From Candidatus Binatia bacterium (lineage in GTDB: Bacteria > Desulfobacterota > Binatia > HRBIN30), in assembly GCA_937925685.1 (NCBI GenBank), contig CALAMI010000008.1, positions 142,191 through 206,190 on the forward strand: a stretch of 64,000 nt of DNA. The letters run 5' to 3'. The first letter of the stretch is position 1, and the number at the start of each line of letters is the position of its first letter. Shown here in pieces: positions 18,915 through 60,883 of the stretch. The position numbers were made by a program, and so were the translations under genes. The notes beneath the pieces are model-generated. The model did not search any database and was not told the origin of the DNA. It worked only from the letters and a program-made list of their open reading frames with translations.

Positions 18915-18934
18915 GTATTGGCTCCTCGATGCTG

Positions 18935-28455: not shown

Positions 28456-28770
28456 ACGACTCCCGATTAGCGAAGCTATCCCTCGACCAAAACCGAGTCA
28501 CATTCCCTGCCTTTGTCGTGCAAAAGATGAAAGCGTGAACCGGCTGGGGCTGAGCGTGAATCCTCAAGTTAAGGGAAGCTAAGAGCTGTTCGGCGTCACG
28601 CACAACTTGGCAAGGCTGTTCGTCTACGGCGTGTTTCGTTTAGCGGAAAAGCAGGCATGTGGTCATGTTCGTTGGCCCATACCCCTGGCGGGCGGTTTTC
28701 GAACGGCTGCACGTTTCTTGCGGGTTGAAACCGTGGTAGGAACGAGCTTGTTGGAGCAAGGAGACAAGCC
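28456..28770. promoter_or_regulatory. divergent intergenic/promoter region between the synthase gene (minus) and the CBS gene (plus)
   Basis: 315 nt non-coding gap between divergently oriented starts; no promoter boxes confidently recognised. Confidence 0.3.
28758..28764 (+). promoter_or_regulatory. ribosome binding site AAGGAGA for CDS 28771
   Basis: AAGGAGA lies 6 nt upstream of ATG 28771. Confidence 0.6.
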
Positions 28771-29304: not shown

Positions 29305-29376
29305 GGACTCGCCACTGCGCTGGCACGGCGCGGAGTGACACCGAGCTGAAAGCCGCGTCGGGGCGGCGTTGAGCTC

Positions 29377-29394
29377 AGGCGTCTACGCCTTTTC
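29377..29394. terminator. weak candidate bidirectional terminator hairpin between convergent genes
   Basis: AGGCG-TCTA-CGCCT short stem-loop followed by TTTT; marginal stem length. Confidence 0.25.
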
Positions 29395-29500
29395 CGTTCT
29401 GCTCCATTTCCCCGAGGTCGTTTCGGCATGGACTGGCGCACCGCTGGCGAGGATCGTTTGCGAACGTCCTGTTCTGTGTGCCAGCGAGCTCGCCTGCCGG

Positions 29501-32235: not shown

Positions 32236-32781
32236 ATGAAGACGTCGACTGGAATGCGTTGGCTGAAAGAGCTGTGGTTGGTCGTTCGAGTGGTGGGAAC
32301 GTTCTTGCTGATTATTCTCCTCGTGTTCTTGGCGAGCGACTACGCACCCGTGGCGGAGCGGGTGAATTTCGCTGTCTGGATGGCCCGCTTCGCTACATGG
32401 GGGAGTTCGTTTTTTCTGCAACTTCTTGGTCCCCTTCTGGGTTTTGCCGTGTCCGTGGATGGAACCCGGATCAGCGCTGGTGGTTTCGCAGTCGACGTGA
32501 CCGAAGCGTGCTCCGGTGTGGTCCCGACAGCAATTTACAGCGCTGCTGTGATCGCATACCCGGCATCGTGGAGCGCTCGCTGCGTCGGGTTGGCACTGGG
32601 GGCCGTGGTGATTCATGCGTTGAACGTGTTGCGGGTGGTGGGGTTGTTTTTGGTTGGTCTGTTTGCCAACCCCTACTTTCACTACACACATGTGTACTTG
32701 GCTCAGGCGTTGATCATCGTCGCCGCGGTGGCCACGTGGCTTTATTGGGCGCAACGGTTCGTGAATGTCTCTAGCCGTTGA
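32236..32781 (+). CDS. exosortase/archaeosortase family protein (minimal, 181 aa)
   Basis: Five hydrophobic helices. Catalytic-Cys motif GGFAVDVTEACSGVVPT and the N..R motif IHALNVLRVVGLFLV, characteristic of exosortases (EpsH-like). Confidence 0.75.
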   Translation: MKTSTGMRWLKELWLVVRVVGTFLLIILLVFLASDYAPVAERVNFAVWMARFATWGSSFFLQLLGPLLGFAVSVDGTRISAGGFAVDVTEACSGVVPTAIYSAAVIAYPASWSARCVGLALGAVVIHALNVLRVVGLFLVGLFANPYFHYTHVYLAQALIIVAAVATWLYWAQRFVNVSSR

Positions 32782-33382
32782 GCCGCTGAAGTTCCTTGGC
32801 CGCCTATTGGTGGCGTTTGTCGCGTTCTTTGCTGCCTGGCTCGCTATTGGCCCGGCGTACACGTCCATGTTGGCAGCGTTGGCTGAGCTTACGGTGAGCG
32901 TCGTGGATCGGCCGACGCACGTTTGGTCCCAAGGAACTACTGTGTTCTTTTGGCCTCGGGGCTACCCGGTGCCGACAGCCCCTCCGAGTATTGCCGCGGA
33001 GTGGATTCAAGCGAACACAATTTTGCTTCTTGCCTTGATGGTTGCCACCGCGGCCCCAACATGGCGAGCCAAGGGCAAACGCATGCTCATCGCTCTTGTC
33101 CTGGTGCTCCTCTGGCAGGTCCTCGATGTTACCTTGGCCATTGAGTTCGGGTATGCCACGCAGTTGGATCCTTATTCGTACAATGCTGCTACAAGATACC
33201 GGCTCGCCTTGTTTACGAACTTGGCCATGTACTTGGACACGCAAATCATTCCGTTCATGATTTGGGCGGGTATTCACTTCCGTGAGTTGTTAGCGATTGC
33301 AGGCACAGTGCACGGCAGGGAAGCTCTGGCTGGGGGGCGGGCACGCCGTGGAAGGGCGACGTCGAAACGTTATTCCGCTTGA
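32765..33382 (+). CDS. polytopic membrane protein overlapping the exosortase by 17 nt in another frame (possible exosortase partner/EpsI-like or second half of a split gene)
   Basis: Hydrophobic helices (LLVAFVAFFAAWLAIGPAY, TILLLALMVATAAP, MLIALVLVLLWQVL, LALFTNLAMYL, IIPFMIWAGIHF); the start codon is uncertain. Confidence 0.45.
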   Translation: MSLAVEPLKFLGRLLVAFVAFFAAWLAIGPAYTSMLAALAELTVSVVDRPTHVWSQGTTVFFWPRGYPVPTAPPSIAAEWIQANTILLLALMVATAAPTWRAKGKRMLIALVLVLLWQVLDVTLAIEFGYATQLDPYSYNAATRYRLALFTNLAMYLDTQIIPFMIWAGIHFRELLAIAGTVHGREALAGGRARRGRATSKRYSA

Positions 33383-36300
33383 ATCGACTCCAACCGGAAA
33401 AGGTGAGGCGCAAGTGCCCGGGCGGTACTCTCTATTTCGATCCATAGGGTAACAGGACCTGAAAACGGCTGCGACCTGGCCGCGGCAATCCGCAAGTGCC
33501 CGCCGCTCGCGCGTTGGGCTAACAGCGTTCCAGCTCGAGCATCCCCAGTTAACCGTGCCCGTACCGCTTGGAGCGCTGCTGGTTCATAACGAATCGAAAC
33601 CTCGAGGGCGGTGAACGGGACGGGAGAAAGGATGTTGTAAGGGAAGCGGTGAACCATCGTGCGGCCACGCCGTGTCAGGCGCGGCGACCCCCGGTGGAGT
33701 CTAACCGGCGCATCGATAGCGAGCGTCGACGAAGCTTGCCACGACCCGTTCACGTCGCCCAAGAATATACCGATGAAGTTCTGGCCGCCCGCTGCCTCTA
33801 GTAAAGGAGTGTAAGCAATAGCTCCAGCGATACATGGAACGGCGGAGGGTTGGGGTGAAATGAGTTGCTGGTTCGGTAGCGGATCAGGTAGGGGTAAAAA
33901 GATCCACGGCGATCCACAGTGGCTGGCTGCCGGGAAAGCCCCGATGGCACCGACAACGTACTGAAGAACGAGCGCAGCGTCTGCAGCCGTTACCTGGCCA
34001 GAGGCGTTCACATCCGCGGCGAGAAGCGCGGCGGCATCGAGGGAGCGCATACCCACGAGGTACTGCAAAATGGCCACCGCATCGCTTGCGCTGACCGGTG
34101 AAATAGCAAGCGCGAGGCTAGACGATGGCTCGAGTTGCAAGGGGCCCGTCGGCACGGAGGTAAAAGCAAACGTTCCGTTGCCGTCTGTAATTGTCTCGAT
34201 CGGTGGGTTGGTGAGACGCACCCGAACCCCAGCCATCGGCCGCCCGTTGCCATGATACCGAACAGTGCCGGAGACCGAGGTGGTAGGTACCGGCGTGAAT
34301 GTGGGGGAGGGAGTGATGGAAGGCGTGCGTGTGGGACTCGCAGAGGCACTTGGAGAAGGCGTGCGGGTAGGGGTGCTGGATGCAGTGGCTGTGCGGCTAG
34401 CCGTTTGCGATGGAGTTGCGGTGACGGTGGCCGAAGGAGTGGCTGTGAGAGAGGGCGTAGCGGTACGTGTGGAGGTGAAGGGTACGGTTGGAGTGGGCGT
34501 TCGAGTAGGCGTCGTCGTTCGCGTGTCCGTGGCTGTTGGGGTCCATGTGCTTGTGGGTGAGGAGGAAGGGGTTGGGGTCGCCGTTGGTGTGAGGCTCGGT
34601 AAAGGTGTGTGAGTAGCTGTTGGGGTTGCGGTCAGCGTGTGCGTAAAAGTGGGTGTCAGGGTCGGTGAACGGGAAGGCGTTAACGTCCATGTAGCTGTTG
34701 GCGTCCGGGTAGGCGTGAGAGTCATCGTGAACGTGGGTGGGAGAGTGTGAGTCGCGGTTGCAGTTGACGAGGGCGTAGCCGTCGACGACGGGGTAGCCGT
34801 CTGGGTTGGCGACGACGTGTGAGTCGGACTCAGTGTTATTGTCGGGGTTTGGGTCGGCGGCAAAGTGGACGTGCTCGTTGGCGTTTGCGACGGCGTTCCT
34901 GTTGCGGTCGGCGTGGGTGTTTCCGTGGCAGTTGCGGAGATCGTCGCCGTCCACGTGAAGGTGGCAGTCGCACTGGGCGTAGGGGTAAATGAAGGTGTCC
35001 GGCTGGCGGTTGCCGTTCGCGACGGGGTTGCGGTTGCCGTTGCAGTGCGCGTAGGTGTGGCCGTCGGGGACGGGGTAAAGGTGCGGCTGGGAGTGATCGT
35101 AAAGGTCGTGCTAGGGGTACGCGTGGGTGTGGGCGTTGGCGAGAAGCTGCGGGTTGGCGATGAGCTTGGTGTCGCTGTGGGCGATCGGCTTGGGGTCCAA
35201 GTGGCTGTGGCCGTAACGGTTGGAGTCTCCGTTGCGGTGCGGGTTTCTGTCGGCGTAAACGATGGGCCTGTGTATGGGTAGACGAACTGCATTGCAGCGA
35301 TGTCATCCGCGCGTACTTGAGCACAACGTCCATCGTTGTGGGCTCGATAGTACATGGTGGCGTCCTTCAGCGTGAAGTTCGGTTCTGTCGGGTTTTCCGA
35401 CGAATGTCCGAGCCCGATACTGTGGCCCACTTCGTGAGTCAGTACCTCGGCAACTAGACAGGGCGTCCAGAAACTAGGGCACTGGCTCGACCACCCATTG
35501 TTGAGCACGATCTTGCCTGTAGTGATGGCAATGAAAGTCGTTCCGTTGACGGTCTTTTGGCTGATGGTGCTCGAACAATACCCCCCGATGCCTAGGGTTC
35601 CCGAACAGTTACTCGGATCGGAGATTTCTCCTCGTGGGTCGTCAAAAATGATTCGATTGTAGGCGCAGCCTCCATATCCTAGGGGTGTCGGAGTCGGGAA
35701 ACCTGGAGCCGGTGTGGGCGTGGGAGCGATGAGCCCCCCATAATCGAGCACCAGTCCTGCCCCCGGCACGCTGCTCCACGCAGCCAATGCATCGCTCACC
35801 GCTTGTATGGACGCAGCAACACCAAGGCCTGCGTCGGTAGTGCTCACATACGACACGGGCGTACCTGTGTCTGCCTCATGCCAGCGGGCCGGCGGGCTAC
35901 CGAGCAACGTGAACGCTGCGTGGTACTCGTAGAGCCCGTCGTCCGGTCCGGCCGGGATTGTGGGAGTGGGTCTAGGTAGAGGTGAAGAATGGACCGAGGG
36001 AAAACCAACCAGGTGCCGAACGCGCTCGACGAATGCCTGCAAATCTTCTTCGCGAGGGGCTGGCGAGACAAAGGCTCCATCGGGATTGAGCAGCGCTGTG
36101 CCCTGGCCGAGCTCCCGCACCACGACCGAGGTGCCATTGCCACGGCGGCGAATGCCGAATTTACCCCAGCCCAGGGAGTTTGTTTGCCACACACCGCCCC
36201 CGTTTCGCACGAGGAACAGGAGGACTTCTTCCTGCAGGAAAAACTGGGGTGCGCCGAAAATCCACTCGATGCGGTCGGCCACTTGGCCACCAGGCAGTTG

Positions 36301-36558
36301 CAACACCACACTGGGCTCGACGATGGGTCCCTTGAGAACCTCGTAAACCTCGATGGTGATGCGAGTGACAATGCTTTGGTCGATCTCGTCGATAAAGGAG
36401 CCGATGGCGGAGACGCGGCCGAGAACGATCGCTTCCGAGCTTTCCACTAGCACTTCATCGCTCATCGGCACGAAAGTCGTAGCCTCGCTCGTCGATCGGA
36501 GGGGGACAGTCGAGAGGAAGGTCAAAGAAAGGAACCACACGTGAAATTTGCGATTCAT
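33370..36558 (-). CDS. secreted matrixin-like metzincin protease with Thr/Pro linker, CarboxypepD_reg-like domain, dockerin-like module and a conserved C-terminal domain
   Basis: Signal peptide MNRKFHVWFLSLTFLSTVPL with AAGGA RBS. HEVGHSIGLGHS (HExxHxxGxxH) at nt 35401-35436. ~330 aa TPT/TPS linker. VSGTVRYHGNGRPMAGVRVRLTN...TDGNGTFAF. SASDAVAILQYLVG...ADVNASGQVTAADAALVLQYVVG dockerin-like. Confidence 0.8.
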   Translation of the reverse strand: MNRKFHVWFLSLTFLSTVPLRSTSEATTFVPMSDEVLVESSEAIVLGRVSAIGSFIDEIDQSIVTRITIEVYEVLKGPIVEPSVVLQLPGGQVADRIEWIFGAPQFFLQEEVLLFLVRNGGGVWQTNSLGWGKFGIRRRGNGTSVVVRELGQGTALLNPDGAFVSPAPREEDLQAFVERVRHLVGFPSVHSSPLPRPTPTIPAGPDDGLYEYHAAFTLLGSPPARWHEADTGTPVSYVSTTDAGLGVAASIQAVSDALAAWSSVPGAGLVLDYGGLIAPTPTPAPGFPTPTPLGYGGCAYNRIIFDDPRGEISDPSNCSGTLGIGGYCSSTISQKTVNGTTFIAITTGKIVLNNGWSSQCPSFWTPCLVAEVLTHEVGHSIGLGHSSENPTEPNFTLKDATMYYRAHNDGRCAQVRADDIAAMQFVYPYTGPSFTPTETRTATETPTVTATATWTPSRSPTATPSSSPTRSFSPTPTPTRTPSTTFTITPSRTFTPSPTATPTRTATATATPSRTATASRTPSFTPTPSATATFTWTATISATATETPTPTATGTPSQTPTSTSTLPPTQTPTITLSPTHTSSPTQTATPSSTATPSSTATATHTLPPTFTMTLTPTRTPTATWTLTPSRSPTLTPTFTHTLTATPTATHTPLPSLTPTATPTPSSSPTSTWTPTATDTRTTTPTRTPTPTVPFTSTRTATPSLTATPSATVTATPSQTASRTATASSTPTRTPSPSASASPTRTPSITPSPTFTPVPTTSVSGTVRYHGNGRPMAGVRVRLTNPPIETITDGNGTFAFTSVPTGPLQLEPSSSLALAISPVSASDAVAILQYLVGMRSLDAAALLAADVNASGQVTAADAALVLQYVVGAIGAFPAASHCGSPWIFLPLPDPLPNQQLISPQPSAVPCIAGAIAYTPLLEAAGGQNFIGIFLGDVNGSWQASSTLAIDAPVRLHRGSPRLTRRGRTMVHRFPYNILSPVPFTALEVSIRYEPAALQAVRARLTGDARAGTLLAQRASGGHLRIAAARSQPFSGPVTLWIEIESTARALAPHLFRLESIQAE
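33943..34107 (-). other. dockerin-like module of the metzincin protein
   Basis: ISPVSASDAVAILQYLVGMRSLDAAALLAADVNASGQVTAADAALVLQYVVGA (two Ca-loop/helix repeats, the first degenerate). Confidence 0.55.
34279..35259 (-). repeat. Thr/Pro/Ser linker-coding tandem repeats inside CDS
   Basis: Repetitive ACNCCNAC-type codon repeats encoding TPT(A/E/R/S)TPT; coordinates derived from residue counting. Confidence 0.5.
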
Positions 36559-36664
36559 ATGCGATCCTTCGTCCGACTGTGTTGCCTCGGTTAATTTGAT
36601 GCCTGGGTGCGTGCCCGCTTACAAGCGATAAATTTTGGTAGCCTCTCCCCCGAGGCAGCTCGTG

Positions 36665-39600
36665 TTACTCGAGGAGCGCACTCTGAATTCGAATCGCACC
36701 GGCACGGAGTCTAACGGGGCCATCGAACACGAGCCAGGCGACAGCCTCTTGTCCGCTGCGAGCTTCGATGCGCGCCAGGGCAAGAGCCACGGAACCGGAT
36801 TCGACGTGGTAGGCGGTGAGCGATTTGTAGCCCTGGTCAGGAAGCACGACCCGCGGCGGGTCAAGCCGAGCGCCGTCGAACCACACGCGAATGGTTGCGG
36901 CGTTCCACGGTGTTTGCGAAGCGATGGTGATGGGAACGCGCCATGTCCGCCGGTGGCGTATGGCTTTCCCCACACGGACAAGCGCTCGTTGGGACGAAGC
37001 CACACTGACGCGCTGGGAGCGGGCCACCATTCCCGAAGCAGCAGGTGCGAAGCTCCCGTTACAGTCGCCCACCATCCCCGTCACGAAATCAATGCCGCTC
37101 ACGTCGCTCGTGGCAGCGGCTAGCGACACTTGTAGCACAGAGCTGCAACTTTCCCTGCGAGCTGGAGTAGGGGTGGCCATCGGAGGTAAGGGGCCGTGAG
37201 GTTGCACAGCCCAGGTGCCGACGCATGACTGAGGGCCGAGAGCCCCAACGACATAACTTAGAATCATCGCTGCGTCTTTGGCGGTGATCGACCCGCTGCC
37301 GTCGGCGTCGCAAACCGCTCGCTGCAGCGTTGAGAGTTCCTCTAAGCCGGTAGCGGCCCGCAACACGACGACGGCATCGCTCGCCGTGACAGTCGACTGG
37401 TTGTTGGTGCCTCGGGGAACGAGCCCCTGTGCTTCCTCAGGAAGCGGAACCACGTTTACCTGACCTACCGGAACTTGTTCGATTTGATAGATCCCGTTGG
37501 GCCCAGTAGTCGCGCTTCGAATGACGCCATTGCTCTCAGCCTGCACCGGAACATCGGGAAGTGGCTGACCTGGCACAAAGTACGCGACGGCACCACTCAA
37601 GCGAATCGCTCCGACTGTGGGGGTAGCCGTCGGCGAGGGGTTCGGGGTGACCGTTGCGGAACGTGTCGGCGTTCCAGTGTGCGTGGGTGTGCTGGTCGAC
37701 GTTGGCGTCGGTGTGCGGCTCGGTGTTGCCGAATTGCTTGGCGACGCCGAAGCCGTCGGAGTTCGCGTCGGCGTCGAGGTTACCGTACTCGTGTTTGTTG
37801 GGGTGGCAGAAGGGGTTCGGGTCAGAGTCGCCGTGAGGGTTGGTGACGGTGTCGCAGTGACGGTGGGAGTGCGTGTGGTCGTGTTCGTTGCCGTCGGTGT
37901 GCGCGACGGGGTGTACGTTCGTGTTAGAGTGGGTGTCGTTGTTGCGGTGGCGCTGGGAGTGGCTGTGCGCGTGGGGGAAGAGGTAGGGGTAAACGTGTGA
38001 GTCGGTGTGCGGGACGGAGTTGGTGTCAGCGTGGGAGAGGGCGTGTTGGTTGGGGTACGGGTAGCGGTCTGTGACGGAGTGTGGGATGGGGTCGAGGTCG
38101 ACGTGAAGGTGGGGGTGTTGCTGCGCGTGGGGGTGGAACTGCGGGTGAATGTTGGCGTGAAGGTGTTCGTTGGCGTTGGTGTGGCCGTTGGGGTAAAGGT
38201 TTGCGTCGGGGTACGTGAACGGGTCTGGGTTGCGGTGTGAGTGGGCGTAGCTGTCCGCGTCGCCGTAAACGTGGGGGTTCGGGTACTCGTCGAGGTGAAG
38301 GTATTCGTTGGGGTGAATGTTTCCGTCGGAGTACTAGAAGGGGTCCAGGTCGGTGTCCAAGTTGGTGTCGCTGTTCGGGTCGGCGTAAAGCTGGGCGTGG
38401 CTGTGAAGGTTGACGTCGGTGTCCAGGTAGGGCTCAGGGAATTCGTGGGCGTGGAGCTTGCCGTCTTCGTTGGTGTGGGCGAAGCTGTTGGTGTCGCCGA
38501 GGCAGTTGTCGTCGGGGTTGCGGCCACAGTTGCCGTGAATGTCGCCGGCGGACGAAGTGTGCTAGTGGGCGTAGGCGAGCTGGTAGCAGTCGGTGGGGTG
38601 AAAGCTAGACTGGCAACGCGGATTCTCGCGGAGTCAGGCACGGAGAGGAAGAGGTGCCCGTCTTTGTCGATGGTAAGACCGGTGACGCGACTGAGCCCTG
38701 CCTCCAGTGCCGAGCCGCCATCGCCGGAATCTCCGAGACTACCGCTGCCAGCCACGGTGGTGATAACTCCGGTGACCATATCCACGCGGCGAATGCGATA
38801 ATTGCCGGCGTCGGCAATCAACAAGTTGCCAAATCGGTCGAAAGTGATGCGGGTCGGCCCAGAAAGCAGGGCTTGGGTTGCAGGCCCGCCGTCACCACCA
38901 AAGCCAGCCCAACCAGTGCCTGCGACTCGTTCGAGGAGCCCGCCACGAATGCGTCGCACAACGTTGTTTCCTCGATCCACGAAATACACGTTGCCGTCGG
39001 GGCCAAGGGCAACGTCCGTGGGAGCGCCAAGTGGCGACTGAGCGGCAACGGCGCCATCGGGTGGGTTGCCCCAACTCCCGTTGCCGGCGACGGTGGTGAT
39101 GATTCCGCCTTCCACCTTGCGGATGCGGTTGTTTTGAAAATCGGCAATGTAAGCGATGCTTCCATCCGCTGAAACAGCAACCGCGTAGGGGTTGGCCAGT
39201 GTGGCTTGAGTCGCTGGAATGTTATCGCCGTTATATCCAAACCCGCCTGTACCTGCGATTGTAGAAATGATGCCGCTGGCAGCGTCAAGTTTGCGGACGC
39301 GGTGGCCGCCCAACTCAACGATGTAAAGGTTGCCGAAGCTGTCGCTGTCCACGTCGAAGGGATTCGTGAGTTGCGCGGCAATGGCTAGTCCGCCATCACC
39401 ACACGATGAGCCCGAGCCACAAGGCGTTCCGTTACCGGCAACAGTCGTGATTGTACCGGAGAGCGAACTCACCATGCGCACGCGATGATGGGCGCTGTCG
39501 GCGACGTAAAGCTCGAAGCCGCCACCAGTCGCTAGCGGCCGGAGGAAAAGCCCCATCGGATCGAGCAGGGCATTTTTAGCGACACCTCCATCGCCAACGC

Positions 39601-40816
39601 CACCGCCAGCAAGAGGCACAACCACGCCGGACGGAGTGACGGCCCGGGTGCGATTTTCTGGATGTGGAGGAGTGGTCATATACTGGCCGACGTAAACCGA
39701 GCCCGTGTCCCAGTCAGCGGCCAGGCCCGTCAGCATGGCGAAGCTCGTCTGGGTAGCCGGTTGGCCATCGGGAGACGGTGAGCGCACACCGGTACCGGCC
39801 ACAGTCTTGACGATCGACTGCAGCGTAATGACTCCGCCAATCGATTCGATGCGGCGTACACGGTTATTGCCGACGTCCGTGAAGAACAAATTTCCCATGA
39901 GATCGAATGCCAGCCGCCCTGGATTGAAAATTCGCGCGCTAGAAGCAGGGCCGTTGTCTCCTGTGAACCCCTGCACACCGTCTCCGGCAATGGTGGTGAT
40001 GATACCTTGAGAGTCTACTCGCCGAATGCGTGAGTTTCCGGAGTCGGCGATGAACAAATTCCCCACGCTGTCGAACGCGATGTGCCACGGATTCGCTAGC
40101 TTTGCTTGAGTTGCCGGTCCACCGTCTCCGGCGAAACCCCAAGCGCCCGTCCCTGCAAAGGTAGTGATGATCCCGCTGGCACTAATTTTTCGAATCCGAT
40201 TTCCATCTGTCTCGGCAACGTACAGGTTCCCAGCCGAGTCGAACGCAACGCCTCGCGGGGCATTGATGCTTGCGCTGGTCGCTGAGCTGCCGTCGCCGCT
40301 ACTAAACGCCCGCCCGTCGCCCACGGCCGTAACGATGACTCCATCGCGCGCGATCTTACGCACCCGATGATTTAGGGTGTCGGCAACATAGACCGCCCCC
40401 CCAGACCCACAAGCGACATCGGTGGGGAAATTGAGCTGGGCGTTCACCGCCAGTCCTCCGTCCCCGGAGAATCCCCGCGCTCCCGTACCGGCCACGGTTT
40501 CGATGGTGAGCAAATCAAGGTCGACCTTGCGAACCCGATGGTTCAATCCATCCGCGATGAAAAGATTGCGGCCGCATACCGCCATGCCTCGTGGATCGAC
40601 GATGCCATTGATGGCCACACCACCGTCGCCAACACCGCCGCCCAAGACGGTATCAATCACGCCCTCGGGCGGAAGTTCGAGGGCCCAACCGAGCGAGGCC
40701 AGCATGGTTGTGACTAGGAAAAGTGAAGCGACGAGGGACGGCAAGAGCCGGTTGGCCGAGAAGCCGCAGCGCCGCATCGTTTCCCAGGGGGTTCCCGGAT
40801 TAGACCCTTCGATCAT
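36665..40816 (-). CDS. giant secreted NHL-repeat (six-bladed beta-propeller x2-3) protein with Thr/Pro linker, CarboxypepD_reg-like domain, dockerin-like module and the same conserved C-terminal domain as the metzincin
   Basis: At least 11 NHL-type repeats (LNHRVRKVD, NSRIRRVD, NNRIRKVE, GNYRIRRVD, AHHRVRMV and similar). ~330 aa TP linker. GAIRLSGAVAYFVPGQ...TGPNGIYQI. TASDAVVVLRAATGL...CDADGSGSITAKDAAMILSYVVGA. Confidence 0.8.
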   Translation of the reverse strand: MIEGSNPGTPWETMRRCGFSANRLLPSLVASLFLVTTMLASLGWALELPPEGVIDTVLGGGVGDGGVAINGIVDPRGMAVCGRNLFIADGLNHRVRKVDLDLLTIETVAGTGARGFSGDGGLAVNAQLNFPTDVACGSGGAVYVADTLNHRVRKIARDGVIVTAVGDGRAFSSGDGSSATSASINAPRGVAFDSAGNLYVAETDGNRIRKISASGIITTFAGTGAWGFAGDGGPATQAKLANPWHIAFDSVGNLFIADSGNSRIRRVDSQGIITTIAGDGVQGFTGDNGPASSARIFNPGRLAFDLMGNLFFTDVGNNRVRRIESIGGVITLQSIVKTVAGTGVRSPSPDGQPATQTSFAMLTGLAADWDTGSVYVGQYMTTPPHPENRTRAVTPSGVVVPLAGGGVGDGGVAKNALLDPMGLFLRPLATGGGFELYVADSAHHRVRMVSSLSGTITTVAGNGTPCGSGSSCGDGGLAIAAQLTNPFDVDSDSFGNLYIVELGGHRVRKLDAASGIISTIAGTGGFGYNGDNIPATQATLANPYAVAVSADGSIAYIADFQNNRIRKVEGGIITTVAGNGSWGNPPDGAVAAQSPLGAPTDVALGPDGNVYFVDRGNNVVRRIRGGLLERVAGTGWAGFGGDGGPATQALLSGPTRITFDRFGNLLIADAGNYRIRRVDMVTGVITTVAGSGSLGDSGDGGSALEAGLSRVTGLTIDKDGHLFLSVPDSARIRVASLAFTPPTATSSPTPTSTLRPPATFTATVAATPTTTASATPTASPTPTKTASSTPTNSLSPTWTPTSTFTATPSFTPTRTATPTWTPTWTPSSTPTETFTPTNTFTSTSTRTPTFTATRTATPTHTATQTRSRTPTQTFTPTATPTPTNTFTPTFTRSSTPTRSNTPTFTSTSTPSHTPSQTATRTPTNTPSPTLTPTPSRTPTHTFTPTSSPTRTATPSATATTTPTLTRTYTPSRTPTATNTTTRTPTVTATPSPTLTATLTRTPSATPTNTSTVTSTPTRTPTASASPSNSATPSRTPTPTSTSTPTHTGTPTRSATVTPNPSPTATPTVGAIRLSGAVAYFVPGQPLPDVPVQAESNGVIRSATTGPNGIYQIEQVPVGQVNVVPLPEEAQGLVPRGTNNQSTVTASDAVVVLRAATGLEELSTLQRAVCDADGSGSITAKDAAMILSYVVGALGPQSCVGTWAVQPHGPLPPMATPTPARRESCSSVLQVSLAAATSDVSGIDFVTGMVGDCNGSFAPAASGMVARSQRVSVASSQRALVRVGKAIRHRRTWRVPITIASQTPWNAATIRVWFDGARLDPPRVVLPDQGYKSLTAYHVESGSVALALARIEARSGQEAVAWLVFDGPVRLRAGAIRIQSALLE
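37238..37387 (-). other. dockerin-like module of the NHL-repeat protein
   Basis: TASDAVVVLRAATGLEELSTLQRAVCDADGSGSITAKDAAMILSYVVGALG. Confidence 0.55.
37613..38599 (-). repeat. Thr/Pro/Ser linker-coding tandem repeats inside CDS
   Basis: Encodes TPTxTxTPT runs; the opposite strand translates as V/G-rich ORFs, a tell-tale of this repeat. Confidence 0.5.
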
Positions 40817-42161
40817 TCAGCTTACCCAGCGTGTTTCCCGCAAGTCCCGAAATTTGCGCGGCTCTTTTGCCAAACTCGCAGTGAGCCAAGGCCTGCGCCA
40901 AATCCATGCCAGGCAGTGGTGCCTGCCGCCGCAGTGGAGAGACTGCTCTTCTGGTTGCGACTTGGCACATTCGCCGACAAAAAAATGCCACGATGGCTAA
41001 GATCATGAACTCCGGCCGCCGATTCCCTGCGACTATGTTGGGCTCTGAGAGCGAGGGCATCGATCCTGTGCACATCCCACAACCGCCTCCGCCACCATCT
41101 ATTGGATCGGGAAATTGCCTTACGGAGAATGCGGGTTGGCAATACATCTCGCAAATCCGCAAGCAAATCAACAGAGAAAATTCGCCGGTGGTTCACCTCA
41201 GATTCCACTGGAAGGCACGTCTTTTGGTGCATTGCGGTGGCGAAGAGGGTAGCTTGGGAGCTTGAGCCCGTAGGGAATAGGAGGTGGGCGGGAGGGGGCA
41301 ACTGACTGCCCATACTGTTGCTGGGCTTGCAGCGGCGAAACAGCAGTTTGCACTCGGTCCCTGCCTTTAAGGAGTTTCCCGGTTCCTATTTGCCTTGGGG
41401 CTGTGGCTGTGCAGTTTCTCGAGTGAGTATGGTTTTGAGGTAACGTGGCGCGGTTGCGTGCGGAGCAGAACCCGACTTCGGCAGGCTTGCGGGTGAGCAA
41501 GGAAGTGTACGCTACGGAAAGCGCAAGGAGGCAAGAGCGAATCGTAAATATGAGGGGCGCACTAGATAACGGATCGGTTGTTTCTGGTGGACGGGCCAAC
41601 TCGACCTGGGAGAAACCTCCACAAGGAGGAACGCAATAGAGAATGCTAGAGGGCGCGCGTTCTCCCGTAGGTGCAGAAAACGTAAAGCGCCGGGATACGG
41701 GTTTCGTGCCGGATGGGGATGCAACCCTGTTGATTCAGTCGAGCTGCTGAACATCAGAGTTTACTTAACCCCTACCACTTAAAACCGATATCTCGCCGCG
41801 TTGGTTCCGTCCCGCGGGCCACTGTAACGTGCGCCCTGGAGACGAGTTTGGAATGTGACGTAAAGCTGGCATTTCCGGCCGACGATTCTCCAGCGGCCGC
41901 TGCATCGAAGAGCTTTGAGTTTGCTTGGTCACGGGCGCCTCTTCCGTGAACCACATCCGTCCCGGTTGTAGGGTCCCAACTCAAGGTGCTGCAGGACTTG
42001 TTTCCACGGGCATCGAGCTTGGGGCTTCCCTAGGAATGCCAGTTTGCGATTGACACGCGTTGGTCAGAGGTGATAGGCATGGGTCGCCCTACAGCGGGTG
42101 TGGGGTGTGTGCTTTGGGCCTTAGGTGCCTCGGTTCGTTAGCAAAGACAAGGAGCGTGCGG
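40817..42161. other. 1.3 kb region without credible ORFs, locally lower in GC
   Basis: Only short, Arg-rich or overlapping ORFs; contains AT-richer stretches (ttacttaacccctaccacttaaaacc); AAGGAG RBS at its 3' edge for the next gene. Confidence 0.4.
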
Positions 42162-43439
42162 ATGGTTCGGGGAAAAATGAAGTGGATGGTTGGCGCGGTG
42201 GAGACAGGAATTTGGAGCCTGGGAGCCTTCGTTGCCGGCTTGTTGATTGCGGTGGGAACATCGCAAGCTCAGTTCAGCCTCGCTTTCACCCAGCGAGCGT
42301 CAAATGGAACGGTGTATGAGGTACTGGTTGTGCCCAATGGGCCGCTCACCGCGGGAGCTGATGAGATGCGAATCACGACCATCGCGGGATCGACTTCTGG
42401 AGTGCAATCCTGCACCTCTCCTGGTGGTACTTCAGGCCAAAACACGTCAGCACTGGCGGGGGTCGACCCGAACATTGGCTCGTTGCACTCTTTTACGGAC
42501 GTTCGCCGCACGAACGTGCTAACGCCAAGTAACGTCTCTTCCGTATTGTTTAGCCCCGGCGGTGGGGGTCGGCTCACGATTGGTGGGATTGATATTTGCG
42601 CGAATGCTGCTGACTGCAGCGGGGGCGACCCGGACGCTCGGATATTCGACCTGGATGGAAATGTGGTCGTGAGCGGAGGCGTCACGGGCACTGCCATCCC
42701 AGCTGCATGCGTGGCAACCGGAGTCCCTGCTCTTTGTTCTTCGGGTCAACTTACCACTTTTGGTTTTGGGTTGCCCCGTGACAGCACAACCAAGGAGTGC
42801 AACAGCAAGCCAACGACAAATCGGACGGTGTGCGGGGCACCCCCAGAGGATGGTTTTACCGTCCCACCAGGCGGCGTGGTGGTGTTCATCTACAATGGTA
42901 ACCTGGCCAACCAGGGATTCAGTGTAGGAGCTGCTGGGTTCGGTATCGACACCGATGGGGTCAATAACCCGCAGTGCCCGGCGAACAGTGTCATCACGGC
43001 GGACGGGCAGAACCCTAGTGCGCCGCCACCGCCACCGCCGACGCCAACGAACACTCCAACCCAAACGCCGACGCCAACGGACACCCCGACTCTGACGCCG
43101 ACCTCGACACCAACGTTAACCCCCACACTCACGCCGACTTTGACGCCAACCCTGACGCCTACGCTGACACCGACGCAAACGCCGACAAATACGCCCACGC
43201 TGACACCGACGCAAACGCCGACAAACACGCCGACGCTGACGCCCACGCCGACAAACACACCGACACTGACTCCGACACGGACCTTCACCCCGACATTAAC
43301 GCCGACCGTGACTCCGTCACCCACGCCCCCGCCTATTCCTCTGATTCCTTCGCCGATATCGCCGGCTGGTTTGGGCATGATTGGCGGGTTGGCAGCGGCG
43401 CTGTTGTGGATGATGCGGCGTGCCGTTCGTCGAGCCTAA
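42162..43439 (+). CDS. secreted protein with PTxTPT linker and C-terminal PEP-CTERM-like sorting signal ([16 protein letters not shown]), paralog 1
   Basis: ATG 42162 preceded by AAGGAG (7 nt spacer). Signal peptide [38 protein letters not shown]-terminus [37 protein letters not shown]. The track ORF starts at 42060, probably too early. Confidence 0.7.
43017..43331 (+). repeat. tandem DNA repeats (36-nt unit ACGCTGACACCGACGCAAACGCCGACAAA[T/C]ACGCC) encoding a ([12 protein letters not shown])n linker
   Basis: Near-identical adjacent units at about 43161-43196 and 43197-43232, embedded in a longer PTxTPT-coding repeat. Confidence 0.6.
43332..43436 (+). other. C-terminal sorting-signal-like tail: Pro motif, hydrophobic helix and basic cluster
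   Basis: [34 protein letters not shown]-stop. Confidence 0.55.
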
Positions 43440-43477
43440 AGTCGTGATGTGAGCGAAATATTCGGGGCTGCGAAGCT

Positions 43478-44968
43478 GTGAGGATCGACCGAGGTTGCTG
43501 CATTTGGCGTTCTCGCGGCGTTGCAGCCCCAGCCGCTGTGGCTGTGGCGCTCTTCGCGTGGGGCAAGTTCGCCGAGGCGCAGTTGAATCAAGCTTCATCG
43601 CAACGAGCAGCTGACGGTACGGTTTATCAAGTCATCATCGTCCCTCCCGGTCCGTTAAATGCAGGTGCCGAAGAGGTCCGGGTAACTACGGTGGCCGGTG
43701 GAGTGCAGGGCCTCGTCTCGTGCTCTGGCGTGGTCGGGGGGCAGGCAGCTGCCGCACGGGCAGTCGTTGGTGCGGACCCAGGTGCAGGTCAAGCCCTCTT
43801 CCCTGCAGGACAAGTGTTAAGAACGACGGTTCTAAATCCATCCTCCCTAACGGTCTCGTTCTCGTCCGGAGGAGCCGGGAGGTTGACTTTTGGCTCCGGC
43901 CCCACTGGGCTTCAGATATGCCGCAATCCGGCGGACTGTACCGGTCCCGAAAACGTGGTGTCGTTGGTGCCAATTTCCACAGCTGATAGTAGCGTGCCGA
44001 AAGCATGCGTGCGCTCCAACGTCGCTGCGGGATGTACGAGCGCTACGGTGACCACGTATGCTTTCGGGTTGGACCAGGACAACGACGGGACTTGTGACGC
44101 TGCCCCCACCACCGATACAAACGTTTGTGCGCCTGCGCCGACAGACGGCTTTAGCTTGCCGGCTGGGCGGGCCATCGTCTTCGTTTACGATAGCGGGTTG
44201 TTGAACACAGGTTTCACGATCGGTGCAGCCGGCTTTGGTGTCGACACCGACGGCTCGAACGATCCCCAGTGCAGTGCCGGAACGGTCGTGAGTGCGGACG
44301 GCCAGAGCCAAAGTGCTCCGCCGCCCCCACCGCCTACGTTCACCCCCACGAATACACCCACCGAGACGCCGACGCCAACGAGCACCCCCACGGAAACTCC
44401 AACGGAAACGCCCACATCGACTCCGACGCCCACACCAACGGAGACGCCAACTGCGACTCCGACCAGGACCCCGACGCACACCCCCACGGAGACACCGACG
44501 AATACTCCGACGAACACACCGACTGAGACACCCACGCACACCCCGACGAATACGCCAACTCATACGCCCACGGAGACGCCTACGCACACCCCCACCGACA
44601 CCCCCACTCATACGCCGACTCATACGCCGACGAACACGCCGACGAACACTCCGACGCACACCCCGACACCAACTCCCACGAACACGCCCACCGACACCCC
44701 GACACGGACTCCAACATCCACCCCGACAGATACGCCCACTCCCACACCCACGTTCACACCGACACACACGATGACGTCGACACCGACTCTGACTCACACC
44801 CCCACACCCACGCGGACCCGCACGCCCACGCGCACACCGCCGCCTATTCCAGTGGTGCCATCGCCGCTTGCCCCTTCGGGGATATTGATGATCGTTTGCC
44901 TCGTGCTGGCTTTGGCTTGGCTTGCCGTGCGCCCAGGCAGGTTCTCTCGCCCCCGTGTGCTGCGGTAG
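43478..44968 (+). CDS. secreted protein with long PTxTPT linker and C-terminal PEP-CTERM-like sorting signal, paralog 2
   Basis: GTG start. Signal-like N-terminus. Domain-level identity to paralog 1 ([42 protein letters not shown] vs [42 protein letters not shown]; [21 protein letters not shown] vs [21 protein letters not shown]). C-terminus [43 protein letters not shown]. Confidence 0.7.
44312..44845 (+). repeat. tandem codon-level repeats encoding a (TPTxTPT)n linker
   Basis: ACNCCNACNGAGAC/CACAC units; ~178 aa of TPT(E/H/N/D)TPT. Confidence 0.55.
44846..44965 (+). other. C-terminal sorting-signal-like tail of paralog 2
   Basis: [40 protein letters not shown]-stop. Confidence 0.55.
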
Positions 44969-45265
44969 TGCCCTCGCGAGAAGTGGCCTGAACCCATCTG
45001 CGGCTACCCGCGCGAAACCCCGCGTCTCCATCGCAGTCTGGGTGCGAAAAAAGTTTCTCGCGCTGCCGTAGGGAAGAGAGCGTCTGCTGAGCTTTCTGCT
45101 TGGAAGCGACGATAACTCAGGCCTCGACGGAGTCCGAAAAATTTAGCGCGTCCGCCGTGAAGGGGTGGAAATTGCATCGGCCCTTCGAAAATGACTTGCG
45201 AAGGTCACTTCGGTGAGAAACAAAGGTTGCCGTCCACGAGCGTTTCTTAAGGATGGCGGGTTGGC

Positions 45266-47758
45266 ATGAGAGGGCCTCAAGGTCTGCAAAAAGTCTTTGC
45301 CTCGGTTCAAGGGCCTGGCTCGGTATGGCTTGCCGTGTTGATGAGCATGGCCTTGGGCGGGGCTCCTAAGGCTCACGCGCAAACCCGTAACGTGTCGTTG
45401 CAGCCACCTAGCGTCGCACTGCCTGTGTCCTCAACGGTTACCCTGGAGTTGCGCATTGACGACCCAAGCGAGATTGTGGGTTACAATCTGGGCGTGAGTT
45501 ACGATTCGTCTTTGCTCGCTGTAGACACTGATTTAACCTTCAGTACGCCCGGATGCGTTGCTCAGGCAAATCGCCAAGATCCTGGGAAAATCTGTATTGC
45601 GATTGCTTGTGCCAGCCCTTTGCCGACGGCCAATACGACTCTGGCAGAGGTTAGGTTCCGCGGTGTTGCCAACGGAGTCACCTCGGCCGCGTTTGCCAAT
45701 GTCATGTGCGGGCCTAGCAGTGTGCCGGCCTGTCTCCTAGAGCGCGAAAGCGGGGGTTCCTTTGCGTGCAACACTTCTGGCACCACGTTCCAGATAGGCC
45801 CCACGCCCACGCCGACACCGACAGCGACAAACACTCCGACGCTGACTGCGACGGTCACCCTTACTGCGACCTTCAGCCGAACTCCGACCAGTTCACCCAG
45901 CTCGACAAACACTCCCTCGGCAACTCGAAGCCCCACTCCAACGTTTTCGGCCACAGTGACGCGCACCTCAACGCCCACGATGACTGCAAGCCCAACGCCT
46001 TCTTGGTCGCCCACCTTCTCCCCGACGCGAAGCTTTACGCGCACCCCCACAGCAACGGCTTCGCCGACGCACACGAGGACAGCGACGGATACGGCAACCC
46101 GTTCGCCGACGCCAACCCCGTCAGCGACGCACACAGCATCGATGACGATGACCCGAACCCCTACTCGAACTGCGACCCTAACCCCTACGGTCAGCGCTAC
46201 GCTGACGCTTACAACCACCGCAACCAGCACGAACACGCCGACCGCGTCCCGCACGTCGACGCCGAGTCCGTCGGCGACTGCGACCTGGAGTGCGACTCCT
46301 ACGGTAAGTCAGACAGCTACACGCACTTTGTCGCCAACGTTGACATCGAGTCCTACTTGGTCGGTGACCGGAACCCCAACCACGACACCAACCGCGACGC
46401 CGAGCTGGACGCTAACTTCGACTTTCACGGTGACGCCAACTCGCACTCCGAGCGCAACGCCGTCAAACTCGGCCACCGCGTCGCTTACGAGAACAGCGAC
46501 TTGGTCGGCCACCGCGAGCCCATCCTTTACCCCATCTGTGACGAGAAGTCCGACTCGCACTGTCACGGCTACCTTGCCTGCCACACCGACCCCGACGGGG
46601 ACCGGAACACCAACGGCCACCAATTCTCCGAGCGCAACGCGGACTGCAACACCGTCGCGAAGCCCGACAAATTCGCCTACGCTCACTGCCTCGAGCACGG
46701 GCACGGCGACGGCGACCCCCTCGAACACCGCCAGCCTCACCCCTACACGAGCGAGCTCACCGACACGAACTGCTTCCTTTTCCGCCACAGCCAGCCGAAC
46801 GCCAACTCCGACACCGACTCCGTCCGTTACAGCGATGCCATCAGCGTCGCGCACCGTAACAGCGTCTGCCACTCCTTCGCCGAGTGCGTCGCCAACCGCG
46901 TCGGCAACGATGTCGGTTGCCGTTACTTTCTCTCCCACCAAAACGCTTAGCCCGACGCCCACAGGCACCCCGTTAGCAGCCACGCCCACGCAGACAGCGA
47001 CCCGTCAACCTACGGCGACGCGGACCGAATCCCGCACGCCCACAGACACCGTGACGCCAACGGTTTCACCAACTTACACCAATGTCCCTACCGCCACCGC
47101 GTCTTGGACGTTTACCCCCCTGCCAACGGCCACGTATACAACCAGTGGGACACAAACTCCGACCGAAACCGCAACGACCACGGCTACAGCCTCTGAAACT
47201 CCGAGCGTGTCCCCATCGCCAACGCTCACGCGAACCTTAGAGCCAACGGCAACGGACACCCCCACTGCCACCAGCAGTCCGAGCCCAAGTATTACCCCGA
47301 CAGTAACTTACTCACCGACCTCGGCCTTTGAGGAGTCACCCACGGCGACGGCCACCGCGCAGATACCCCCGACGCAGGAGCCTTCCGCGACGCCGCCGCC
47401 GACGGAGACCATCGAGATTCCAAGTCCGTCCCTGACGGCAGAGCCAACGGTTACGCCGACAGCGACGCCACAGTCCTCGCCAACTGCGAGTGCCACGGTT
47501 ACTGAGTCGCCTCCTTTACCCACTCCGACTGTGCAACTGGGCACTTGTCCGGGCGACTGTGATGGCGATGGTCAGGTTGCGGTATATGAGATCGTGCGCA
47601 TGGTGAACATTTTACTCGAAGCATTTTCTGTGGAAGTGTGCGCAGCAGGAGACTTGTGTGGCGATGGTCGGATTACTGTCGACGAAATCGTGCTTGCGGT
47701 TCGCGCCTTGCTGCTGGGATGTCCTTTGCCGGTTTCACCCGACCGTTGCTCGCTCTAA
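45266..47758 (+). CDS. scaffoldin-like secreted protein: N-terminal cohesin-like domain, ~575 aa Thr/Pro/Ser/Ala linker, C-terminal dockerin-like domain
   Basis: Signal peptide; cohesin-like pattern TVTLELRIDDPSEIVGYNLGVSYDSSLLAV...TTLAEVRFRGVANGVTSAAFANV; C-terminal CPGDCDGDGQVAVYEIVRMVNILL...GDLCGDGRITVDEIVLAVRALLLGC (two Ca-binding loop/helix repeats). Confidence 0.75.
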   Translation: MRGPQGLQKVFASVQGPGSVWLAVLMSMALGGAPKAHAQTRNVSLQPPSVALPVSSTVTLELRIDDPSEIVGYNLGVSYDSSLLAVDTDLTFSTPGCVAQANRQDPGKICIAIACASPLPTANTTLAEVRFRGVANGVTSAAFANVMCGPSSVPACLLERESGGSFACNTSGTTFQIGPTPTPTPTATNTPTLTATVTLTATFSRTPTSSPSSTNTPSATRSPTPTFSATVTRTSTPTMTASPTPSWSPTFSPTRSFTRTPTATASPTHTRTATDTATRSPTPTPSATHTASMTMTRTPTRTATLTPTVSATLTLTTTATSTNTPTASRTSTPSPSATATWSATPTVSQTATRTLSPTLTSSPTWSVTGTPTTTPTATPSWTLTSTFTVTPTRTPSATPSNSATASLTRTATWSATASPSFTPSVTRSPTRTVTATLPATPTPTGTGTPTATNSPSATRTATPSRSPTNSPTLTASSTGTATATPSNTASLTPTRASSPTRTASFSATASRTPTPTPTPSVTAMPSASRTVTASATPSPSASPTASATMSVAVTFSPTKTLSPTPTGTPLAATPTQTATRQPTATRTESRTPTDTVTPTVSPTYTNVPTATASWTFTPLPTATYTTSGTQTPTETATTTATASETPSVSPSPTLTRTLEPTATDTPTATSSPSPSITPTVTYSPTSAFEESPTATATAQIPPTQEPSATPPPTETIEIPSPSLTAEPTVTPTATPQSSPTASATVTESPPLPTPTVQLGTCPGDCDGDGQVAVYEIVRMVNILLEAFSVEVCAAGDLCGDGRITVDEIVLAVRALLLGCPLPVSPDRCSL
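45800..47530 (+). repeat. very long low-complexity T/P/S/A linker-coding region
   Basis: TPTxTAT / SPTPT runs throughout; the opposite strand and other frames give long V/G/D-rich pseudo-ORFs. Confidence 0.5.
47531..47755 (+). other. dockerin-like C-terminal module
   Basis: DCDGDGQVAVYEIVRMVNILL and DLCGDGRITVDEIVLAVRALL repeats. Confidence 0.6.
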
Positions 47759-47788
47759 GGCTCGCGCGCGGGCTTTGCACAGCCGCAC

Positions 47789-49877: not shown

Positions 49878-49914
49878 TGCTAGGGCTCAAGTGGAGCAGC
49901 ATCCCAGCAGATGT

Positions 49915-60878: not shown

Positions 60879-60883
60879 GATAC

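Follow-up and report, generated by a model that had tools for sequence, protein, structure and literature searches.

A putative cohesin-dockerin surface complex encoded beside an exosortase-H gene in the HRBin30 lineage of Binatota

Organisation of the locus

The window considered here is a stretch of 64,000 nucleotides from a Candidatus Binatia bacterium of the HRBIN30 lineage (contig CALAMI010000008.1, positions 142,191 to 206,190 of the forward strand). At 33370-47758 it contains three long open reading frames (ORFs) of 1062, 1383 and 830 residues, here termed P1, P2 and P3, each of which appears to carry exactly one cohesin and one dockerin-type module. Together with a neighbouring exosortase gene and two candidate anchored proteins, P4 and P5, they form a cluster whose products look like a small complex that assembles itself at the cell surface and has no connection with the degradation of cellulose. 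The three ORFs had been described in an original prediction made from the letters alone and are present with the lengths given there; the strings that it quoted were likewise located, ADVNASGQVTAADAALVLQYVVG in P1, CDADGSGSITAKDAAMILSYVVG in P2, and DCDGDGQVAVYEIVRMVNILL / DLCGDGRITVDEIVLAVRALL as well as IVGYNLGVSYDSSLL...TTLAEVRFRGV in P3. The gene order is ATP-binding cassette (ABC) exporter, family 2 glycosyltransferase (GT2), CBS protein, M1 peptidase, exosortase H (XrtH), XrtH-associated protein, P1, P2, P4, P5, P3, VWA protein, AAA ATPase and helix-turn-helix (HTH) protein. The three modular proteins are laid out as follows.

33370..36558, minus strand: P1, 1062 residues; signal peptide, N-terminal domain without family, matrixin-like metzincin, Pro/Thr linker, CarboxypepD_reg, dockerin, 74-residue linker, predicted C-terminal cohesin
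35254..35946, minus strand: P1 metzincin catalytic region; HEVGHSIGLGHS, Met-turn ATMYY, ADDIAAMQFVY
34282..35253, minus strand: P1 Pro/Thr/Ser linker, 324 residues; T 38%, P 19%, S 14%
34123..34281, minus strand: P1 CarboxypepD_reg-like beta-sandwich; PF13620 at 40.1 bits excised, cutoff 32.3
33925..34116, minus strand: P1 dockerin; second Ca2+ loop DVNASGQVTAAD intact, first degenerate
33703..33924, minus strand: P1 dockerin-to-cohesin connector; conserved W.F.P ... Y.PL ... Q.F ... GDVNGSW
33373..33702, minus strand: P1 predicted divergent C-terminal cohesin; very basic, isoelectric point (pI) about 11.7
36665..40816, minus strand: P2, 1383 residues; signal peptide, NHL beta-propellers, 331-residue Pro/Thr linker, CarboxypepD_reg, dockerin, linker, predicted C-terminal cohesin
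38612..40669, minus strand: P2 NHL-repeat propeller region; TEN_NHL 183 bits in 8 stretches, NHL 105 bits (Pfam)
37241..37420, minus strand: P2 dockerin; second loop DADGSGSITAKD intact, first degenerate; Dockerin_1 26.0 bits excised
36668..37009, minus strand: P2 predicted divergent C-terminal cohesin; basic, pI about 11.5; BLASTP homology to the C-terminal region of P1
45266..47758, plus strand: P3, 830 residues; signal peptide, cohesin, 575-residue Pro/Thr/Ser linker, C-terminal Cys-rich EF-hand pair
45380..45805, plus strand: P3 cohesin; acidic, 6 Cys, Cys pattern conserved within its subfamily
47543..47731, plus strand: P3 dockerin-like, Cys-flanked EF-hand pair; loops DCDGDGQVAVYE / DLCGDGRITVDE

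A six-frame regular-expression scan of the whole 64 kb found EF-hand-type loops, Pro/Thr linkers and sorting tails composed of a transmembrane (TM) helix and basic residues only at 33.4-47.8 kb, so that these features are clustered and not scattered. P1, P2 and P3 each begin with a signal-peptide-like sequence, as read by eye and not with a predictor, and it is on this basis that their description as secreted proteins stands. Thr/Pro/Ser linker makes up between 30% and 70% of each protein (324, 331 and 575 residues in P1, P2 and P3), and the heads of P1 and P2 and the cohesin and dockerin modules are set apart by 320-575 residues of such sequence. A low-complexity artefact was ruled out by the independent homology of the globular ends and by the synteny of the ORFs in other genomes. 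The linkers are also visible in the base composition of the window, where strand-specific spikes of GC skew and AT skew at 34000-36000, 38000-40000 and 44000-48000 lie over Pro/Thr linker coding sequence (runs of ACN and CCN codons). The GC-skew spikes are caused by the regions encoding Pro/Thr/Ser linker and could by mistake pass for replication or island signals.

P1 is a matrixin-like protease protein whose metzincin region holds a HExxHxxGxxH zinc site (HEVGHSIGLGHS) and a Met-turn. Its membership of Pfam Peptidase_M10 (PF00413) is marginal, with 24.4 bits for the excised region and 22.1 bits at full length against a cutoff of 24, and matches in the PDB are weak, covering MMP-12 and MMP-7 from the motif to the Met-turn at E of about 0.02. 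The earlier matrixin assignment thus holds at the level of the signature. In public gene calls (L001) only the last 288 residues of P1 are kept and spurious opposite-strand ORFs run across the Pro/Thr linker, as is also the case in the related locus L068; P1 illustrates how automatic gene calling destroys linker-rich modular genes.

P2 carries a double NHL-propeller as its head, and here the family assignment made earlier is strong (TEN_NHL, 183 bits). Between P2 and P4 lies a divergent intergenic region of 1.2 kb, within which a block at about 40970-41182 (minus-strand sense) aligns over 130-220 nt with 72-77% identity in L069 and L002, the remainder of the region not aligning with either. 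The block includes a well-kept stretch, TTGATTTGC..GATTTGCGAGATGTATTG..AACCCGCA, has no match in Rfam, and might act as a promoter or 5' leader or encode a small RNA.

P3, the adaptor, has no catalytic domain. An exact look-up in public assemblies returned no public record of the protein. Orthologs in L069 and L071 are alike in architecture, and the EF-hand pair is 81-86% identical in orthologs.

Dockerin-type modules

The dockerin-type modules were scored against Pfam Dockerin_1 (PF00404, cutoff 22.9 bits) both within the full-length proteins and excised. The P1 dockerin lies above the cutoff either way (28.6 bits full length; 32.3 bits excised, E 1e-7), and the P2 dockerin passes at 26.0 bits when excised and stays below at full length (21.9 bits). 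The structural model of P1 superposes on solved dockerins and has their three-helix fold. In both proteins the first repeat keeps its helix and has lost the liganding positions, residues 1, 3 and 5 being hydrophobic or absent, so that these modules do not have two intact loops.

The C-terminal EF-hand pair of P3 differs in kind from these dockerins. As read from the sequence, both of its loops have Glu at position 12, the second has Cys at position 3, and cysteines flank the pair. It scores 23.0 bits on EF-hand_1, under the cutoff of 25.4. An hhalign comparison with 21 two-loop dockerins gave 86% at E 5e-6, a score that is partly circular because the set had been chosen by a regular expression for the loops. 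The pair is therefore best termed dockerin-like. Of the original proposal that all three proteins bear dockerins, the part concerning P1 and P2 holds on the Pfam scores of the excised modules, and the part concerning P3 holds only in the sense of a dockerin-like module below the family cutoff.

Cohesin modules

The N-terminal domain of P3 scores 22.9 bits on Pfam Cohesin (PF00963), just below the cutoff of 24.1. An exhaustive HMMER/phmmer search of 1.8 billion representatives with this domain returned 85 proteins at E <= 1e-3, among them P0009 (E 6e-16; 13 Pfam cohesins, 367 bits), P0011 (five cohesins), P0010 (four cohesins and a dockerin) and P0015 (three cohesins and a dockerin). Matches to proteins with 3-13 strong Pfam cohesins span E 6e-16 to 3e-9. 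On account of these phmmer matches the domain, previously called cohesin-like, is by homology a true cohesin, belonging to a subfamily with conserved cysteines. The majority of the distant matches are type IX secretion system (T9SS) proteins bearing both cohesins and dockerins. A word-indexed homolog search with the same domain gave no matches, and a search of PDB sequences gave noise only. The subfamily also occurs in unrelated contexts within proteins of about 740 residues (P0007 / L072-L074), where the cohesin has a YncE-like beta-propeller on one side and thrombospondin type 3 repeats on the other.

P1 and P2 are in turn predicted to end in cohesins, of a divergent type. Their last ~190 residues are mutually homologous (29% identity, E 8e-8, BLASTP), and the excised domains have no match in Pfam. 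A profile built from six such domains aligns with the family of the P3 cohesin in hhalign at 93.8% (E 1.7e-7), and a local cohesin hidden Markov model (HMM) scores the P1 and P2 domains at 8-15 bits, in register. The model of P1 folds its last 110 residues into a nine-strand beta-sandwich of cohesin type, with a predicted local distance difference test (pLDDT) score of 80-92. Foldseek agrees with a cohesin, and CBM2, CBM3 and chitin-binding domains are also among its top matches. Furthermore, the positionally equivalent domain passes Pfam Cohesin in L003, a Bacteroidales metagenome-assembled genome (MAG), and in L004, with 52.5 and 38.2 bits respectively. Sequence and model together indicate that P1 and P2 probably end in divergent cohesins.

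The P1 and P2 cohesins are distinguished by their charge, having a pI of 11.5-11.9 and a net charge of +8 to +12 in about 125 residues in six of six close orthologs of the HRBin30 lineage. All dockerins, the P3 cohesin and the P4 and P5 domains have a pI of 4.1-4.5. Among the homologous cohesins, those of L076 and L003 have a neutral character and that of L004 is only mildly basic (net +5, pI 9.6).

In both P1 and P2 the cohesin closes a C-terminal module made up of CarboxypepD_reg, dockerin, connector (W.F.P ... Y.PL ... Q.F ... GD.NGS) and cohesin. A profile search with this module returned five proteins. The connector motif is common to P1, P2, P0005 and homologs from the Fibrobacteres-Chlorobi-Bacteroidetes (FCB) group, and its pLDDT is low in the P1 model. 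In MAGs of the FCB group the module precedes a type IX secretion C-terminal domain; in the present lineage it is terminal and followed by no sorting domain.

Exosortase, partner protein and candidate anchored proteins

The exosortase and the proteins that may depend on it occupy the same stretch of the window.

32236..32781, plus strand: XrtH (exosortase H), polytopic membrane protein of 181 residues; Cys (VTEACSG), Arg (LNVLRV) and His present
32765..33382, plus strand: probable XrtH-associated membrane protein, 205 residues; overlaps the stop of XrtH, convergent with P1
42060..43439, plus strand: P4; signal peptide, acidic Cys-containing domain of ~260 residues, Pro/Thr linker, sorting-type tail
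43478..44968, plus strand: P5, paralog of P4 (46% identity); architecture and tail as in P4

XrtH scores 86.6 bits on NCBIfam TIGR04177 (exosort_XrtH; cutoff 86), the identical public gene carries Pfam Exosortase_EpsH, and synteny of the gene extends to L002 and L068 (80-84% identity). The membrane protein encoded next to it keeps its position and its overlap with XrtH in the same two loci (77-81% identity), and for its ortholog the Pfam XrtH_assoc match is described as 'faint'.

P4, the true start of which is probably near 42159, has no match in Pfam or NCBIfam. It has orthologs of 80% identity in L002 and L069, and homologs in L076 share 35-39% identity and the same tail. In P4 and P5 the tail runs from PPPIP[LV][IV]PSP..P.G through a hydrophobic helix to an Arg-rich end, a tripartite layout that resembles the exosortase-substrate type. 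An [IV]P[ST]P..(P).G motif followed by a TM helix and basic residues is common to P4, P5, the L076 homologs and two cohesin proteins of related loci, P0006 and P0090. The cognate signal of XrtH is IPTLxxWG-CTERM. The locus is like the exosortase H system (TIGR04177) in having a small XrtH-type exosortase followed by a probable associated membrane protein, with proteins nearby whose motif-TM-Arg-rich tails start with IP[ST]P or VPSP, and unlike it in that the tails of P4 and P5 match no curated CTERM model. The idea that P4 and P5 could themselves be hidden cohesins was dropped because hhalign was negative against both cohesin profiles (0.3% and 0.1%).

At 24129-32098, before XrtH, lie the ABC exporter, the GT2 protein with an N-terminal GH2-like TIM-barrel match, the CBS protein and the M1 peptidase, a block that is syntenic with XrtH in L002 and L068. 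It may represent the polysaccharide side of the exosortase system. An M1 peptidase likewise comes after the tail-bearing cohesin in L076.

Conservation in related genomes

Within the Binatota, HRBin30 has the rank of an order; the lineage is diderm, with methylotrophy and alkane degradation described for it (PMC8262859). Bacterium HR30 (L002, BEIG01000008.1) is the closest genome; it comes from a hot-spring metagenome, is listed as unclassified by NCBI and shares 60% identity over the P1 module. Overlapping parts of the gene order are conserved in L002, L068, L069/L070 and L071, with cluster proteins at 56-88% identity. A pattern scan for P1/P2-type dockerins matched the HR30 genome at one locus only, which suggests that the cohesin-dockerin set is a small closed system.

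A more distant lineage (L076-L078) was seen on 19 contigs. Its cluster encodes two P4/P5 homologs (35-39% identity), an NHL protein, the protein P0090 and an M1 peptidase. The NHL protein has the CarboxypepD_reg-dockerin-connector-cohesin module (34% identity to that of P1), and its dockerin, of P1/P2 type, is the only one in the cluster. P0090 is a P3-type cohesin protein without a dockerin that ends in VPSPTSPSG, a TM helix and basic residues, a tail identical to that of the P4/P5 homologs. A further natural variant is found in L075, where P0006, which bears a tail and whose P3-type cohesin shares 46% identity with that of P3, takes the position of P3 next to the VWA, AAA and HTH genes, and the protein adjoining it ends in a single Cys-flanked EF loop.

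The L076 contig also encodes a beta-propeller protein (2-2116) in which a Pro/Thr/Asp/Ala linker of great length occurs and which ends in ...DGGCAVDP...LLWLLPPAALIWRRRRTS. This tail is of a different, MYXO-CTERM-like type, and the protein lies in the neighbourhood of those with VPSP tails. The genes convergent with P3 in the window (47789-50910) encode a VWA protein (CoxE-like, MadC-like), an AAA ATPase (MadB-like, GvpN-like) and a duplicated HTH_23/HTH_32 protein; they stay beside the P3-type gene in L069, L071 and L075, with scores well under the equivalog cutoffs.

A model for assembly at the cell surface

The explanation that best fits these data, to which a probability of roughly 0.55 is given, is that a conserved envelope cluster of Binatota (HRBin30) combines exosortase-H sorting with a small closed cohesin-dockerin set, in which the cohesin of P3 would dock P1 or P2 and the products would be chains or rings. 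It is proposed that XrtH processes P4 and P5 and attaches them to the cell surface. The P3 cohesin would capture the classical-type dockerin of P1 or P2, and the unusually basic P1/P2 cohesins would in turn receive either the acidic, Cys-rich EF-hand pair from the other end of P3 or a dockerin from another P1 or P2 molecule. The product would be Ca2+-dependent chains or rings instead of a hub-and-spoke scaffold, and long stalks, probably glycosylated, would carry the protease and the ligand-binding propeller on the outer surface or beyond it.

One cohesin and one dockerin per chain predict chains, rings or self-pairing and not a hub, and Amy4 of Ruminococcus bromii is a precedent for multimerisation with such an architecture (PMC4611034). 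P3 had been cast as a scaffold holding both cargo proteins, a role that falls away because its single cohesin cannot hold both simultaneously. The component set proposed with it was correct in placing cohesin and dockerin modules on a protease, a propeller and an adaptor, and had overlooked the predicted C-terminal cohesins of P1 and P2, the exosortase with its probable partner protein, and P4 and P5. The pairing of a P3-type cohesin with a P1/P2-type dockerin draws support from L076, where the anchored cohesin is accompanied in its cluster solely by a dockerin of the P1/P2 type, and from L075, where a P3-type cohesin with a tail stands in the place of P3. These variants support the view of the P3-type cohesin as a surface receptor, for which the P1/P2-type dockerin would be the likeliest ligand. 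A second pairing, between the P3 EF-hand pair and the basic P1/P2 cohesins, may exist as well. In the L076 lineage the P3-type protein has no EF-hand pair and the cohesin is neutral; the exchange of the P3 tail for an acidic EF-hand pair and the turn of the P1/P2 cohesins to a basic character, compared between two lineages only, suggest that the two modules could be partners.

Several observations weigh against this explanation. XrtH passes TIGR04177 by just 0.6 bit, its presumed partner reaches only 13.9 bits on NCBIfam XrtH_assoc (NF041730), far under the cutoff of 35, and there is no XrtH within 10 kb in L076. The isolated tails of P4 and P5 match no curated NCBIfam CTERM model, and an AlphaFold2 (AF2) prediction of their N-terminal domain from a two-sequence alignment gave no usable fold (pLDDT 39.5). 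The C-terminal module of P3 fails the Dockerin_1 cutoff of 22.9 at both full length and excised (14.7 and 19.8 bits), and in a phmmer search of the PDB it ties between calmodulin and dockerins (E 3-5e-3). The degenerate first Ca2+ loop of P1 and P2 means that canonical dual-site binding is not expected. The charge correlation is drawn from two lineages only, and the dockerin-connector-cohesin arrangement, a fixed supra-module across phyla, fits self-pairing equally well.

A bolder form of the model is tentative and may well not hold. It envisages two orthogonal pairs, one between the one-loop dockerin and the acidic, disulfide-rich cohesin and the other between the Cys-rich EF-hand pair and the basic cohesin, which would alternate in Ca2+-dependent chains or rings built on XrtH-sorted proteins and reach up to about 100-200 nm out on glycosylated stalks. 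If true, this would be a new cohesin-dockerin assembly logic and the first functional link of exosortase sorting to cohesin-dockerin display.

Self-pairing, which seems unlikely, would have the C-terminal dockerin and cohesin of P1 and P2 partner each other, either as an intrachain cap or in homotypic daisy chains, with the P3 cohesin binding a P3-type EF-hand and P3 docking no cargo. In characterised scaffoldins a cohesin and a dockerin on one chain usually differ in specificity, which counts against such an arrangement. The conservation of the CarboxypepD_reg-dockerin-connector-cohesin unit across Binatota, Bacteroidales and further MAGs of the FCB group, with the connector fixed at ~75 residues, is nevertheless what self-pairing would lead one to expect, and the AF2 model of the P1 C-terminal module reaches a predicted template modelling (pTM) score of 0.69 despite its three domains, although the connector itself is of low model confidence. 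P3-type cohesins and Cys-flanked EF loops also occur on one polypeptide (P0014, P0018, P0020 and P0026), the anchored cohesin of L075 neighbours a protein ending in a single such loop, and Amy4 of R. bromii binds its own dockerin (PMC4611034). The anchored P3-type cohesin of L076, however, has no EF-hand partner in its cluster and does have a P1/P2-type dockerin next door.

It is quite unlikely that the modules do not pair at all, the basic sandwiches of P1 and P2 serving to anchor the proteins to anionic polymers (lipopolysaccharide, exopolysaccharide), the dockerins acting as Ca2+-stabilised spacers, and the P3 cohesin being a generic adhesin or similar to a carbohydrate-binding module (CBM). 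The extreme pI and net charge kept in all close orthologs, the CBM2, CBM3 and chitin-binding domains among the top Foldseek matches, and the synteny of the GT2-family glycosyltransferase and the ABC exporter with XrtH are all in keeping with polymer binding, and what cohesin and dockerin modules do outside cellulosomes is in general not known (PMC5244752). Yet the basic character is missing from the homologous cohesins in L076 and the FCB group, and the co-inheritance of equal numbers of cohesins and dockerins in the cluster across lineages is hard to explain without pairing.

A cellulosome-like complex for polysaccharide degradation is very improbable and is excluded for this window, in spite of the cohesins, dockerins and Pro/Thr linkers, by the absence of carbohydrate-active enzyme (CAZyme) cargo, CBM and multi-cohesin scaffoldin: Pfam scans confirm the earlier statement that no glycoside hydrolase is attached to a dockerin-bearing protein (the only such match in the window being the N-terminus of the GT2 protein), a metzincin and an NHL propeller make up the cargo, P1, P2 and P3 have a single cohesin each, and the host belongs to a diderm lineage described as methylotrophic and alkane-degrading (PMC8262859).

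Relation to known systems

Non-cellulosomal cohesin-dockerin systems are a kind already known. The survey of Peer et al. from 2009 reportedly covered such cohesins and dockerins across every domain of life, and the cohesin 2xdh of Archaeoglobus fulgidus is an example. Set against such modules, as they are described in papers citing that survey, the present genes form a compact, conserved and numerically balanced cluster at an exosortase locus, with P1 and P2 dockerins that have one intact Ca2+ loop and cohesins that are extremely basic. The clostridial cellulosome (CipA-type, type I/II) differs more widely, as the cluster has no CAZymes, CBM, multi-cohesin scaffoldin or surface-layer homology (SLH) anchor and the first dockerin repeat is degenerate.

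A parallel in architecture is Amy4 of the R. bromii amylosome, a non-cellulose system in which an enzyme with one cohesin and one dockerin has been shown by experiment to recognise itself and to multimerise (PMC4611034). Like Amy4, the proteins described here carry one of each module per polypeptide. Unlike the amylosome, which is Gram-positive, has sortase- or ScaE-type anchoring and carries GH13 cargo, the present system belongs to a diderm member of the Binatota, has a protease and a propeller as cargo and an exosortase as neighbour, and is known from genes alone.

Another parallel is offered by the Cloacimonadota 'Ca. Stygibacter', for which a cellulosome-like complex of dockerin-bearing peptidases, cohesin proteins and a T9SS-anchored scaffoldin has been deduced from genomes (PMC8542988). 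Both are diderm systems that combine dockerin-bearing peptidases with cohesin proteins, and homologs of the P1/P2 C-terminal module occur in Bacteroidales and other FCB MAGs. The Cloacimonadota and FCB proteins, by contrast, have a type IX secretion C-terminal domain and a giant multi-cohesin scaffoldin; the proteins in the window have no T9SS domain and single cohesins, and anchoring is apparently by an exosortase-type tail in relatives or by way of other proteins.

A literature search found no link between exosortases and cohesin-dockerin proteins beyond a domain-count table in a review of anaerobic methanotrophic (ANME) archaea, the only paper in the searched literature to name cohesin, dockerin and exosortase together, and nothing relevant on Binatota dockerins or on XrtH or IPTLxxWG. 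Four features appear to be new: the phylum of the host, a balanced one-plus-one architecture shared by all three proteins, the occurrence of one-loop dockerins together with very basic cohesins, and the tie to an exosortase-H locus with exosortase-type tails on the closest relatives of the cohesin.

Other genes in the window

Scans of the window with Rfam and for tRNA genes gave no matches. At 1080-7663 a tubulin-like protein of 953 residues (Tubulin_2, 202 bits) is followed by a 762-residue protein without family and a BrxL-like Lon/ATPase protein. These genes might make up a module for defence or of the cytoskeleton, with no relation to the cohesin-dockerin cluster. Two tandem DUF1501 and DUF1800 pairs lie at 13332-20416 on the minus strand, with a 362-residue ORF without a family match between them (16381-17469). 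At 59343-62233 a TldD/PmbA metallopeptidase pair comes before genes for a DPBB/SPOR lytic transglycosylase-like protein and a Rce1-like CAAX protease.

Significance

Cohesin and dockerin modules are widespread outside cellulosomes, where their function is still described as unknown (PMC5244752). Most of these occurrences are scattered through large genomes, so that partners cannot be guessed. The cluster described here is small and conserved, and its three cohesins and three dockerin-type modules reduce the question to a 3 x 3 binding matrix. It offers in addition two cargo proteins with recognisable heads, two candidate anchored proteins, a sorting enzyme, and natural variants whose adaptor cohesin is joined straight to a sorting tail. 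Designer scaffolds could draw orthogonal pairs from the one-loop dockerins, the Cys-rich EF-hand pair and the pI-11.7 cohesins. For the biology of these envelopes, the cluster bears on whether exosortase systems display cohesin-dockerin complexes.

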